This document shows, in pieces, positions 6,297 to 56,102 of a DNA stretch of 64,000 nucleotides (its first letter is position 1; each line of letters starts with the position of its first letter). Both the position numbers and the translations under genes were made by a program. The notes under the pieces are model-generated. The model saw only the letters and a program-made list of their open reading frames with translations. It made no database searches and was not told where the DNA came from. Origin of the DNA: Candidatus Anaeroferrophillus wilburensis (GTDB taxonomy: Bacteria > Desulfobacterota > Anaeroferrophillalia > Anaeroferrophillales > Anaeroferrophillaceae); contig JAFGSY010000045.1 of the NCBI GenBank assembly GCA_016934315.1, positions 4,361 to 68,360 on the forward strand, in the 5' to 3' direction.

Positions 6297-6926
6297 ATGG
6301 ATCATACAACAACCCCATCGTCCCCCTTTGCCAACCAAACCCTGGAGACCATCAACCGGAGGCACAGCACCCGGGTGTTTGCCGACCAGCCGATCAGCGA
6401 AGCGGATCTGCTCACCATACTCCAGGCGGCCAACCGGGCACCCTCGGCCCATAACCAGCAGTCTTGGCGCTTCATCGTCATTCGGGGGGAGAAAAAACAT
6501 CAGCTGGTACAGCTGGTCAGTGCCCGGGCAGGCGATTTCCCCCGGGCATCACGGGCCCTGCTGCGAATGGCTTCCCGCAGTATTGCCAGTGCCCCGGTAG
6601 TCATCGCAGTGGCCAACACCGGCGAACTGATCGCCCACGGCATCGACCTGTTCAAAGTGGACAAGACCATTGCCCACGATTTTTTCCGCACCATGGAGAT
6701 CCAGAGCTCGGCCGCTGCCGTCCAAAACTTGCTGCTGGCGGCCACCGCCCTCGGTCTGTCATCCGTCTGGCTCGGCATCCTTTTTCTAATCAAAGACGAT
6801 ATTCTCCAGTTTCTCGGTGAACCGGCCGGCGAGTTCATGGCAGTAATTCCCATCGGCCATGCCGCCACTGCTGGCAAAAGCCCGAAAAAACGACCCTTGG
6901 AGATGATTGTTAAAACTCTGGACTAA
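6297..6926 (+). CDS. nitroreductase-family protein
   Basis: 209 aa. RHSTRVF, SAHNQQSWRFIV and LAATALGL motifs typical of NfnB/NfsA-like nitroreductase fold. Confidence 0.7.
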   Translation: MDHTTTPSSPFANQTLETINRRHSTRVFADQPISEADLLTILQAANRAPSAHNQQSWRFIVIRGEKKHQLVQLVSARAGDFPRASRALLRMASRSIASAPVVIAVANTGELIAHGIDLFKVDKTIAHDFFRTMEIQSSAAAVQNLLLAATALGLSSVWLGILFLIKDDILQFLGEPAGEFMAVIPIGHAATAGKSPKKRPLEMIVKTLD

Positions 6927-8918: not shown

Positions 8919-8977
8919 GGGTGCCATCAACTTTTTTTAGCCTTTTATGATGCTTTATTTCCTGCTATGTAATCGGT

Positions 8978-9140
8978 GATGAACTCGTAACAATCGGCAA
9001 AACGCCTTGAAAACCGGATGGCACAGTAGTGGCTCCAGCAAGACCTGAAGAATGCTGCATACATGGGAGCACGCTGCACAGTTGGTTGATGAAGACTGCA
9101 GTTTAACGAACAGCGTGGAGTTGTTACAAAGCTATCATCA
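8978..9140 (+). repeat. copy A of a roughly 163-nt conserved intergenic element (candidate structured ncRNA / REP-like family)
   Basis: Starts tgatgaactcgtaacaatcggcaaaacgccttgaaaaccggatggca and ends gtggagttgttacaaagctatca. The 5' and 3' ends are mutually complementary (cgtaacaa/ttgttacg). About 70% identical over full length to copy at 39573-39736. Confidence 0.6.
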
Positions 9141-9154
9141 GGAAAGGAAGTATC

Positions 9155-39379: not shown

Positions 39380-39574
39380 ATGTGTCAATCTAATGCTTTT
39401 TTAATCAAGGAAAACGGAACCGAAGAGATGGTCATGGAAAATGTCTCCCTGATCACCCCTTTGGAAGACGGTTCGCTCGAACTGACGGGCCTGTTTGGTG
39501 AACGTTTGAACGTCAAAGCTACCATCAAGGAGATGGATCTGCTGAAGCATCGGATCCTGATCCAGGAAGATTGA
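39380..39574 (+). CDS. cooT: CooT-family small nickel-binding protein (64 aa, N-terminal Met-Cys)
   Basis: MCQSNAFLIKENGTEEMVMENVSLI...LTGLFGE. MC start and size or pattern match CooT family. Orphan (no cooS/cooC adjacent). Confidence 0.5.
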   Translation: MCQSNAFLIKENGTEEMVMENVSLITPLEDGSLELTGLFGERLNVKATIKEMDLLKHRILIQED

Positions 39575-39736
39575 TGAACTCGTAACAACTGGCAATAAGC
39601 CTTGGAAACCGGATGGCATAGTAACAGCTCCAGATTTGAGGCAAGCAAAACCTGATGAATGGGTTGACCATACAGTACGCCGCAGTGACGAAGGTTGCTG
39701 CTTGAAGAAGAAGGTGGAGTTGTTACGAAGCCATCA
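39573..39736 (+). repeat. copy B of the roughly 163-nt conserved intergenic element
   Basis: Begins at the cooT stop codon (tgatgaactcgtaacaactggcaataagccttggaaaccggatggca...) and ends gtggagttgttacgaagccatca. Lies between convergent cooT and nfi. Confidence 0.6.
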
Positions 39737-39743
39737 AGATTGA

Positions 39744-40610
39744 TCAGCCCTGCCTGAAGGGATGCGCAGCCAGCCAATCCTGCCTCATCCGGTTGACATG
39801 ATGATGAGCCTGGCGGGTGACCTCAGGCAATCGGTAGCACCCGGTCAACTGTAGTATCAGTGCTGCAGCTGTTGCAACGCTGATCCGGTGACCGGGAGAA
39901 ACAAAAACCGGTTTAACCCGGTCCCGCGTCCTGACAACCATGCCAATCTGCCTGTTGTCTACCCCCATCAACGGTACCATGCTGCCTTTCTTTTCCCCCG
40001 GCATCCTATACGTTCCCACCAGCCTTTTTTTGGCGCAACCTATTGTCGGCAGATCAAAAAGGATTCCCAGATGGGAAGCCAGCCCCAGACCACGGGGATG
40101 GGCAATTCCCTGGCCATCACTGACCAGCAGATCAGGAAGGACAGAAAGCCGACTGAGAATTGCTGCCAGCAACGGTCCTTCACGAAAGGATAACAACCCC
40201 GGAAGATAAGGAAACTGCGACTTGGCCTGATGCTGGCACACCGACAAAAGGGTCAATCCAGGATAACTGAAGGTCAAAACGGCAGCAAAAAGCATTCCGG
40301 TACGCTGATCATAGGAGATATCAGCCCCGGCAACCGTTCCCAGCGGCCACGGAAACCGGTCGGCAATGACAACCTGCTCTCGCAGATGACGCTGAACCTC
40401 CACCGCTTCGGTAGGTGAAAGCTGCCAGGAATGGGATTCCAACATATCATTCATACCGTCACCTGGCACATGTACGGGCTTGGCAATTGCAACGCTGCCA
40501 GCAGTGGGAAAACACCGGGTAAAAGTTCCCGAAACAGCATATTCAGCTTTTTCCCATTTCTGCCATGCAGAGATCCGCTTGTCAAGAGAAGGGAGAACTG
40601 CTATAGCCAA
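39744..40610 (-). CDS. nfi: endonuclease V (deoxyinosine 3' endonuclease)
   Basis: GADISYD ... GIAHPRGLGLASHLG motifs of the endonuclease V family. Confidence 0.75.
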   Translation of the reverse strand: MAIAVLPSLDKRISAWQKWEKAEYAVSGTFTRCFPTAGSVAIAKPVHVPGDGMNDMLESHSWQLSPTEAVEVQRHLREQVVIADRFPWPLGTVAGADISYDQRTGMLFAAVLTFSYPGLTLLSVCQHQAKSQFPYLPGLLSFREGPLLAAILSRLSVLPDLLVSDGQGIAHPRGLGLASHLGILFDLPTIGCAKKRLVGTYRMPGEKKGSMVPLMGVDNRQIGMVVRTRDRVKPVFVSPGHRISVATAAALILQLTGCYRLPEVTRQAHHHVNRMRQDWLAAHPFRQG

Positions 40611-47753: not shown

Positions 47754-48605
47754 ATGTCAGATCTGCAAAACAACGAGGGCATCATCGGGACAACCGGAGC
47801 CGCAACAATGGTTCGCAAAATTCCCCTTGTGCTGTCAGCTGGCACCCTCTTCCACCTGAAGCTGTCGGAAGCTTTTGCCATTGCCAAAGAATGCCAGTTC
47901 GACGGGGTGGAACTGATTATCAATGAGGTTTTTGAACGGCTTGACCCACGTACGATCATTGAAACCCTGATAAAAATCTGCCCGATCGCCTCGATTCACG
48001 CCCCTTTTTTTAAGATTTCCGGGTGGGGAAACCAGGTTAAAACCCTGCTCAGAACCATTGACCTTGCGAATGAATTTCAGATACCCCTGGTCAATTTCCA
48101 TCCACCGCTATGGCTGCCACCGGAATTTACTTTCTGGCGCTGGTTTCGTCAGGTAAAAGATTTCCAGCAGTTGACACCTGACAACCAGACCATAATCACC
48201 ATTGAAAATATGCCCTACGTCGGCAACCGAATCCGCTTCAATCCCAACATGCTGCGCAAGACCGAGGATATGGTCAGGTTTATCGAAAAGCACAATCTGT
48301 ACATGACTTTCGACACCACCCATCTCGGCTCTCACAACCCTAACTTTCTCAACGGCTTTAAGGAATTCTACCAAACCGGACGCATTCGCAACATTCATTT
48401 CAGCGACTACGGTCATGGCCGGGAACACCTGTTCCCCGGTCGCGGCCTCCTGCCCCTCACCCGCTTCCTTTACCTGCTAAAACGACTGAACTATGAGGGC
48501 GCCATAACGGTTGAACTGAGTCCGGCAGAACTGCCTCCCACCACCAAAATGATTATTACCAGCCTGCGGGACCTGCGGGAATATCTGGTGGTCGAAACCA
48601 GCTGA
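47754..48605 (+). CDS. sugar-phosphate isomerase/epimerase (xylose-isomerase-like TIM barrel) family protein
   Basis: 283 aa. AP-endonuclease-2/TIM-barrel-like pattern (FDGVELI...HAPF...TFDTTHLG...EL). Probable start MVRKIPL at 47808. Confidence 0.55.
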   Translation: MSDLQNNEGIIGTTGAATMVRKIPLVLSAGTLFHLKLSEAFAIAKECQFDGVELIINEVFERLDPRTIIETLIKICPIASIHAPFFKISGWGNQVKTLLRTIDLANEFQIPLVNFHPPLWLPPEFTFWRWFRQVKDFQQLTPDNQTIITIENMPYVGNRIRFNPNMLRKTEDMVRFIEKHNLYMTFDTTHLGSHNPNFLNGFKEFYQTGRIRNIHFSDYGHGREHLFPGRGLLPLTRFLYLLKRLNYEGAITVELSPAELPPTTKMIITSLRDLREYLVVETS

Positions 48606-48700
48606 CACCGTAACGGCTCCAGATTCGAAGCAGGCTTATGCCCCTGAGAGTGCAAAACCTGAGTAATCGATTGCACAATCAAAAAGATGGCATTGTCACC
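48606..48700 (+). repeat. partial diverged copy (D) of the 163-nt element (central/3' portion)
   Basis: ccgtaacggctccagattcgaagcaggc ... gcaaaacctgagtaatcg aligns with copy B agtaacagctccagatttgaggcaagcaaaacctgatgaatgg (22/25 in the core). Confidence 0.5.
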
Positions 48701-48706
48701 AGGCCA

Positions 48707-49459
48707 TCAGTCCTGCCAGTTGATCAAGCCGGCCAGATATCCGGCCCCAAAACCGTTGTCGATATTCACTACACCAACACCGCCAGCACAGGAATTCAGC
48801 ATGCCGAGCAACGCCGCCATACCGCCGAAAGAGGCGCCGTAGCCGATGCTGGTGGGCACCGCAATAACTGGGCTGTCCACCAGGCCGGCAACCACACTGG
48901 GCAGCGCCCCCTCCATGCCGGCAATAACAATAATCACCGCAGCCTGACCCAGCTTTTCCCGATAAGCCAACAACCGGTGCAGGCCGGCAACCCCCACATC
49001 GATCAGCACTTCGGGTTCCTGACCCATCAGTTCAAGGGTTACCGCCGCCTCCCTGGCAGTTTTGAGATCGGAAGTCCCGGCCGTTACAATCAGCACCGTT
49101 CCCCGACCGGAAGGCTTCACCTCATGCCTCTTCAGGAGCAGAAACTCCCCCTCCTCATCATAGGTAAAACCGGGAAACAGGGGCTGCAACGCCGCTGCTT
49201 TTTCCGCTGACAGGCGGGTAACCAGAATATTGCCGGGCAAGCCCACCATATACTGAAGAATGGTGGTCAACTGGCTCACGGATTTCCCCTGGGCAAAGAC
49301 CACCTCACCGACTTTGCCGCGCAAGCCCCGATGGGTATCAAGATGAGCGACCCCCACATCCCGGTAAGGCATCTCCTTCAGGACATCCATCACCTGATCC
49401 AGGCTGATCTTCCCCTCCTGGTACTTTTCAAGCAGATCCCGCATATATCTTGTATCCAT
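48707..49459 (-). CDS. larB: nickel-pincer cofactor biosynthesis protein LarB (PurE-like carboxylase/hydrolase)
   Basis: Start at MDTRYMRDLLEKYQEG. C-terminal PurE-like fold (LIVTAGTSDL ... AGMEGALPSVVAGLVDSPVIAVPTS). Adjacent larE. Confidence 0.65.
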   Translation of the reverse strand: MDTRYMRDLLEKYQEGKISLDQVMDVLKEMPYRDVGVAHLDTHRGLRGKVGEVVFAQGKSVSQLTTILQYMVGLPGNILVTRLSAEKAAALQPLFPGFTYDEEGEFLLLKRHEVKPSGRGTVLIVTAGTSDLKTAREAAVTLELMGQEPEVLIDVGVAGLHRLLAYREKLGQAAVIIVIAGMEGALPSVVAGLVDSPVIAVPTSIGYGASFGGMAALLGMLNSCAGGVGVVNIDNGFGAGYLAGLINWQD

Positions 49460-55958: not shown

Positions 55959-56013
55959 TCTTTTCGTTTAGTCAGGCAATAGTTGACAGACATACTACTC
56001 TTAACTATACTTT

Positions 56014-56102
56014 GATGAACTCGCAACAGCTGGCAAAACCCCGCGAAAACCACATGGCAGGATAACTGTTCCAGCTTCGCGGCACGCAAAAGTTGTTAAA
56101 TC
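56014..56102 (+). repeat. short copy C (about 89 nt) of the conserved element, immediately upstream of the CNNM/CorC transporter gene
   Basis: gatgaactcgcaacagctggcaaaaccccgcgaaaaccacatggcaggataactgttccagcttcgcggcacgcaaaagttgttaaatc. Retains the 5' and 3' ends but lacks the central 75 nt. Internal ccgcgaa/ttcgcgg stem. Confidence 0.55.

Follow-up and report, generated by a model that had tools for sequence, protein, structure and literature searches.

Four related elements in the 64-kb window (the whole stretch of DNA that was analysed), each on the + strand, are very probably copies of a non-autonomous DNA transposon, a MITE. We favor this reading because of terminal inverted repeats, 6-bp duplications that vary from site to site, an empty site, insertion at unrelated loci, bursts of near-identical copies and subfamilies that have only their ends in common. 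The defining features of prokaryotic MITEs match those seen here (PMC10969869, PMC3184786). The family is probably an undescribed one of a well-known kind; no description of it was found in Rfam or in the searchable literature, including searches with the terminal sequences and with ISDol1. It is otherwise an ordinary kind of bacterial repeat.

Table 1. Positions in the window of the four MITE copies (A to D) and of the parts of copy B.
Feature	Position	Strand	Remarks
Copy A, full-length decayed MITE, 159 bp	8978..9136	+	between MsrAB (+) and DUF4126 gene (+); covariance model 60.1 bits
Copy B, intact 163-bp MITE	39573..39735	+	between stop codons of CooT (+) and endonuclease V (-); covariance model 126.6 bits
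Copy C, 5' fragment (5' repeat, inner repeat and left arm)	56014..56102	+	nhmmer E 4.5e-9 vs. B
Copy D, decayed copy between convergent genes	48579..48708	+	covariance model 17.1 bits, E 0.05
Left target-site duplication of B, AAGATT	39567..39572	.	6/6 match to 39736-39741
5' terminal inverted repeat of B (GATGAACTCGTAACAACTG)	39573..39591	+	
Inner repeat of B (GATGGCATAGTAACAGCTCC)	39612..39631	+	further copy of the terminal repeat, pairing with that at the 3' end
3' terminal inverted repeat of B (GGAGTTGTTACGAAGCCATC)	39716..39735	+	conservation across 89 metagenome loci
Right target-site duplication of B, AAGATT	39736..39741	.	removal together with B restores the ...GAT TGA TCA G... junction of relatives

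As shown in Table 1, the copies lie at the four places where the original prediction had put a single diverged repeat family, and their relationship was confirmed by sequence comparison. Copies A and B are 69.3% identical from end to end (166 columns, blastn E 1e-18), and B and C are 73.9% identical over 88 nt. Using B as a single-sequence query, nhmmer detected D at E 4.9e-5, which is support independent of D itself; the E value of 2.4e-31 obtained for D with a four-copy profile comes from a profile that includes D. A 28-nt core pattern common to all four copies (AAACCNNNTGNCANNRTARYNGYTCCAG) occurs 4 times in the window vs. 0.02 occurrences expected from shuffles. A covariance model was built from 20 family members and run on the window with filters off; it revealed no further copies there, and copy C was missed by this full-length model. 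A fifth weak match (6862-6918) lies inside a coding region/ORF and is probably due to chance. No ORF is conserved through the elements, so the family is non-coding, as had been proposed.

The copies differ in their state of preservation. Copy B is an intact, fairly recent insertion located exactly between two abutting stop codons. Copy A is old and still full-length; its fold is gone, and against the covariance model it shows a 12-nt deletion and numerous disrupted pairs. Copy C is a truncated remnant devoid of the right half and of the true 3' terminus; it had been thought to keep both termini, yet after the 5' repeat, the inner repeat and the left arm only ~8 nt (AGTTGTTA) resemble the 3' repeat. 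Copy D, taken earlier for a central fragment at 48606-48700, is a decayed, internally shortened copy of near full length. The divergence among the copies had been regarded as unlike MITEs; it shows only that the window copies are old.

The elements are bounded by terminal inverted repeats of ~20 bp, of the form GATGAACTCGTAA[A/C]AA... at the left and ...GGAGTT[T/G]TTACGAAGCCATC at the right end. The 5' end reads GATGAACTCGTAAAAAGTC and the reverse complement of the 3' end reads GATGGCTTCGTAAAAACTCC, and both are kept across subfamilies with unrelated interiors. In the main subfamily an extra internal copy of the repeat is present near the left end, and RNAalifold pairs this inner repeat (columns 53-72) with columns 194-212. 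Two features in the original prediction have a different nature: the pairing termini, described as a closing helix, are the terminal inverted repeats, and in the conserved internal core (..GATGGCACAGTAAAAGCTCC..) the terminal repeat occurs a third time. An apparent 125-bp form starting at the inner repeat and flanked by an AAAACT duplication (L027/L042) was also considered; a degenerate outer repeat is present upstream of it, and the inner repeat was therefore not counted as an active end.

To define target sites, the element boundaries were set at GATG...CATC and the hexamers on either side were compared, with shifted hexamers serving as controls. Among 29 distinct full-length metagenomic insertions, the flanking hexamers were identical at 6/6 positions in 15 and at 5/6 positions in 5, vs. 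0% and 0.5%, respectively, in the controls. The duplicated hexamers vary by site (AAAATT, AGGTAT, ACTATT, AACTTT, ATGATT, AATATT, ATTGTT, AAAGTT and others) and follow the consensus A-NNNN-T, with A at position 1 in 20/20 and T at position 6 in 18/20. Where the hexamer starts with A and ends with T, a 4-bp duplication next to TG...CA ends gives identical strings. This condition fails in two events, which favor 6 bp over 4 bp: the L019-type insertion (AATGAA/AGTGAA) and that in L092 (AATGAA/AACGAA), the latter being a weak witness since it sits inside another MITE copy. A duplication length of 6 bp, rather than 4 bp with TG...CA termini, is likely.

Of the window copies only B retains an intact duplication; the flanks of A, ATCGGT (8972-8977) and ATCAGG (9137-9142), match at 4/6 positions and form a degraded pair, and no duplication is left at C and D. 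The empty counterpart of the B site was found in two relatives, L105 (GCA_034660915.1) and L107, in which no spacer separates the CooT and endonuclease V genes (TGA|TCA) and the junction reads ...GGAAAC TGA TCA CGC... and ...GAAAAC TGA TCA CCC..., respectively. Subtraction of B and one AAGATT from the window yields CAGGAAGATTGATCAGCC (...CAG GAA GAT TGA TCA GCC...), with back-to-back stops as in the relatives. Correspondingly, the 169 nt that run between the window stop codons (39572-39574 and 39744-39746) equal the 163-nt element plus the 6-nt duplication, and the CooT stop codon has been rebuilt from the last T of the left AAGATT and the first GA of the element. Copy B thus shows an insertion supplying or preserving stop codons at tightly packed convergent genes. 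Target-site duplications had been named as a test for a MITE, and this test was positive, both at B with its empty site in relatives and at the 15 metagenomic insertions with complete matches. We also observed that the stops of CooT and endonuclease V form a palindrome, TGATCA (L105:4715-4720, L107:1014-1019), an unusually tight arrangement that is split by B in the window.

The genes adjoining the four window copies have nothing in common. The CooT gene next to B encodes 64 AA. Copy C has SMC (-) on one side and a CNNM/CorC transporter gene (+) on the other, and occupies the 5' leader of the latter; copy D is flanked by a xylose-isomerase-like gene (+) and a LarB-like gene (-). The xylose-isomerase-like ORF (47754-48605) ends inside D, whose first 27 nt supply its final 9 codons counting the stop, and the terminal ..ATCA of D overlaps the stop codon (48707-48709) of the convergent LarB-like ORF (-). 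Two of the four copies, B and D, are therefore found in convergent intergenic regions, where a 5' leader is impossible. A near-consensus sigma-70 promoter (TTGACA, 17 nt, TATACT; 11/12) at 55983-56011 of the window ends 2 nt before C, so the transcript of the CNNM/CorC gene (56145) would probably have a leader whose first ~90 nt are the MITE remnant.

The nearest sampled relatives of the window organism show ~75% protein identity. Copy A is absent from the syntenic locus and from upstream of the DUF4126 orthologues in these relatives; in L009 and L012, MsrAB and DUF4126 are separated by a Mem_trans gene, and in the window by element A alone. No MITE copies were found in L009, and L012 contains only a 40-nt 3' fragment at another site and on the opposite strand. 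It was from this fragment that the 3' end was first seen to be the best-conserved part. In the representative-genome collection, the 28-nt core pattern gave 7 matches in unrelated taxa, without further similarity, and we ascribe these to chance.

A metagenome scan with the 3'-end pattern GGAGTTNTTACRAAGCYATCA recovered 89 loci. Across these, similarity is confined exactly to GATG...CATC: at the 3' end it breaks off after ...GCCATC, where an A usually follows as the initial base of the duplicated target, and the flanks farther out are unrelated. The whole element is present in most of the loci, with the consensus GATGAACTCGTAAAAAGTC..GATGGCACAGTAAAAGCTTCATATTCGAGGCAGGCAAAACCTGAG..GCGTACTTACAGTACGTTGCAATGACGAAGGTTGCAGCATAACGAAGAAGATGGAGTTTTTACGAAGCCATC. 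Element sizes range from 125 to 206 bp, and at least four subfamilies have unrelated interiors and the same two ends; the groups other than the main one include a 142-bp AT-rich type and types of 133 bp, 125 bp and ~205 bp. The genes beside the metagenome insertions are ordinary housekeeping genes, with no transposases among them. In metagenome Ga0164318, copies at six different sites are 92-100% identical to each other; near-identical copies with target-site duplications are what the original prediction had put forward as favoring a MITE. Metagenomes Ga0307990 and Ga0307991 are likewise rich in copies. The Ga0164318 copies represent the same GTTGTTAC variant as the window copies, and are 78-84% identical to B and 63-70% identical to A. 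The family is widespread in sediment and marine metagenomes, and it can serve as a marker of both recent and ancient insertion events. It also explains contig breaks in short-read assemblies: as expected at a repeat, a short-read contig of the source population breaks off inside B.

The interior hairpin was analyzed in a structure alignment of 20 full-length copies of the main subfamily. The consensus fold, one long irregular hairpin plus the extra left-end repeat, comprises 37 pairs, with 92.4% of cells paired and 18 pairs changed on both sides. None of 500 column shuffles matched the observed covariation, and structures slid by 1-3 columns gave at most 18 double-change cells vs. 53 observed. 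Clear compensatory sets are ACGC/GCGT, AGGC/GCCT, ATGC/GCAT and GCGC/GCGC, as well as AACC/GGTT, AGCC/GGCT, ATCC/GGAT and ATTC/GAAT. The interior hairpin of the main subfamily is real and covarying. Many copies at separate sites have the compensatory variants in common, which places the origin of these variants in the lineage of the active element and not at single host loci. Among the window copies, B still folds (z-score -3.95), and the fold of A is lost (+0.5), which argues against host selection on structure at A. The element had been predicted to be structured; this is borne out for the family by strong covariation and fails for copy A, and the structure belongs to the mobile element as such. 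We infer that the hairpin serves the element's own propagation, not the regulation of host genes.

The two strands of the main subfamily are not equivalent in folding. The RNAalifold energy was -27.2 kcal/mol for the given strand vs. -12.1 kcal/mol for its complement, the mean MFE -48.4 vs. -40.2 kcal/mol (Wilcoxon p 3e-4) and the mean z-score -4.75 vs. -3.5. By hand count, G-U pairs occupy ~87 and A-C pairs ~8 cells on the given strand; this strand is G-rich, and G-richness alone helps G-U pairing. In the other subfamilies the strand asymmetry is inconsistent.

We considered whether the elements could instead be cis-regulatory structured RNAs, i.e., riboswitch-like leaders or UTR elements maintained by host selection at each locus. 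The well-paired hairpin (92% of cells), with doubly changed pairs that no shuffle equaled, the better folding of the + strand, and the location of A and C 5' of membrane-protein genes, with a strong promoter just upstream of C, agree with such a role. Yet B and D lie between convergent genes, the neighboring genes are functionally unrelated, and the elements are not conserved at orthologous loci, neither at DUF4126 nor at the CooT/endonuclease V junction. In tandem gene contexts, the orientation was sense in 11 and antisense in 13 cases, as judged by crude ORF calling. Of the two supposed leaders one, copy A, has no fold, and the target-site duplications show that the elements arrived by insertion. 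Searches of Rfam 15 gave nothing for the window at the gathering score, for copy A at E 10 or for ten metagenome loci at E 0.1. A host-selected regulatory RNA is accordingly very improbable, and the earlier suggestion of a riboswitch-like leader or discrete ncRNA is not supported given the convergent-gene sites, the lack of orthologous conservation, the unbiased orientation and the Rfam result. In annotation, it is advisable to mask these four sites as mobile repeats, together with their counterparts in related Desulfobacterota-like genomes and metagenomes, and to keep them out of lists of candidate riboswitches or small RNA genes.

Elements of the IS200/IS605 type are not known to make a target duplication or to have terminal inverted repeats, and are characterized by a fixed 4-5 nt target and a link to tnpA/tnpB. 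A remnant of this type, either a palindrome-associated mini-element or a TnpB guide-RNA scaffold, could account for the left flanks of B and C, which both read TTGAT|GAAC, and for the abrupt stop of 3' conservation followed by variable sequence. It is refuted by the variable 6-bp direct duplications and the terminal inverted repeats; moreover, tnpA/tnpB was upstream in 0/89 loci, where the neighbors are housekeeping genes, and we regard this explanation as almost certainly wrong. REP/BIME elements are G+C-rich imperfect palindromes of ~20-40 nt, without terminal inverted repeats or target duplications (PMC3184786). The REP-type element suggested earlier does not fit, as the present elements are 125-206 bp long and A-rich (34% A, 43% G+C) and have terminal inverted repeats and 6-bp duplications.

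The compensatory changes in the interior hairpin and the G-U bias on one strand are not required by plain cut-and-paste of double-stranded DNA. Since subfamily-defining substitutions are compensatory and G-U but not A-C is tolerated on one strand, the main subfamily might need a folded single-stranded form (RNA or one-strand ssDNA) for its propagation, or might deliver a functional structured RNA, and its transposase, with its unusual 6-bp duplications at A-NNNN-T and its recognition of two left repeats, might belong to an IS group not yet linked to MITEs. We put this joint reading forward tentatively, as an unlikely one. One alternative within it, a structured RNA expressed by the element for its own spread, is improbable when taken by itself. 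Such an RNA would fit the subfamily-defining compensatory changes (ACGC/GCGT, AGGC/GCCT, ATGC/GCAT, GCGC/GCGC), the excess of G-U over A-C (roughly 87 vs. 8 cells), the better fold of the forward strand (p 3e-4) and the position of B and D exactly between convergent stop codons, and it has a precedent in bcr1, which is transcribed and shows compensatory changes (PMC3184786). Against it, there is no orientation bias with respect to host transcription, the other subfamilies show no consistent strand asymmetry, the G-rich forward strand alone favors G-U, and no terminator-type T run follows the hairpin.

For the MITE, the following mechanism is proposed. A putative transposase encoded elsewhere would bind the terminal repeats and act in trans, and the element would be cut and pasted, presumably by DDE-type chemistry. 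The insertion sites would be A-NNNN-T hexamers, either in AT-rich DNA between genes or at the ends of genes, and staggered cuts there would lead to duplication of the 6-bp target. Candidate groups for this transposase, with duplications of ~6 bp, are IS481, IS1634, ISDol1-type and IS21. No autonomous insertion sequence bounded by these repeats was found in ~0.7 Mb of fetched loci, among plasmids or among viral contigs. All fetched loci were searched for inverted repeats paired at a distance of 600-3500 bp and having matching flanks; the only one to qualify, a 1,850-bp candidate in L093, turned out to be a MITE carrying a nested IS110-family insertion. Plasmids gave no blastn match. The viral-contig scans gave one match each: that to the 3' end is due to chance, and that to the core pattern (L102) is without similarity to the model. 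The covariance model, together with the terminal-repeat pattern (GGAGTTNTTACRAAGCYATC), provides the means to catalogue the family and to seek its transposase.

At L093:791-2640, the MITE is flanked by AAAGTT on both sides and contains a nested element of ~1.7 kb with an IS110-family transposase (DEDD_Tnp_IS110 + Transposase_20), which sits between ...CATAACGAAG and AGAAGATGGAGTT of the MITE. The family is thus itself a target for an IS110-family element, and elements of the IS110 type may use the MITE as a target.

The closest described relatives in kind are Chunjie from Geobacter and bcr1 from Bacillus. Chunjie of G. uraniireducens Rf4 (Chen et al. 2008, as summarized in PMC3184786 and PMC10969869) is likewise a MITE of a deltaproteobacterial lineage. 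According to these summaries, it has ~20-bp (21-bp) terminal inverted repeats, flanking direct repeats and a stable predicted hairpin, and is found mainly between genes; its copies may be full-length, shortened or partial, and some overlap gene ends (PMC3184786, PMC10969869). It differs in its length of 178-235 bp and 9-bp direct repeats vs. 125-206 bp and 6-bp duplications in the window family, a comparison made by description only (PMC3184786). As outlined in PMC3184786, bcr1 of the Bacillus cereus group (Klevan et al. 2007) is a mobile repeat of ~155 bp with short flanking direct repeats and a non-conserved genomic distribution, whose structure is kept by compensatory changes; with time this structure disappears from some copies, which parallels copy A. 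In the same outline, bcr1 has 5-bp direct repeats, a two-stem-loop cruciform and demonstrated transcription, whereas the window family has 6-bp duplications and one long irregular hairpin. The host phylum is also different.

Correia/nemis of Neisseria and ERIC of Enterobacteriaceae resemble the window family in size (100-200 bp), terminal inverted repeats and long hairpins, as well as in insertion between genes or at gene ends, where they can join UTRs (PMC3184786, PMC10969869). Their effects on mRNA have been shown experimentally (PMC3184786, PMC10969869). Their terminal sequences and target preference are other than those described here, and sequence similarity is not expected.

Several further observations were made at the metagenome loci. 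One genomic site is represented in three metagenomes, with a full-length element in two (L027:3312-3459 and L042:8091-8238) vs. the last ~50 nt in the third (L068:92-140), so that an old insertion can be seen decaying step by step in related populations. Adjacent MITE pairs with a single shared hexamer were seen in tandem at L090:1918-2255 (AATTTT) and head-to-head at L098:1123-1441 (AAAGTT/AACTTT), suggesting that the same target was reused or that sites beside an existing copy are preferred. A palindromic insert of another kind, ~110 nt long (GGGGGACACCAT...ATGGTGTCCCCC), splits a MITE copy at L086:4200-4421 and L096:1-110 and is probably a further small mobile element nested in it. Finally, the 133-bp subfamily (L016:1046-1179, L031:2437-2570) has an interior hairpin motif, GTCATTCCCGCGAAAGCGGGAATCCAG, that occurs also in the flanks of L017, L029 and L059, among others, and possibly represents a small repeat family of its own in these marine genomes.
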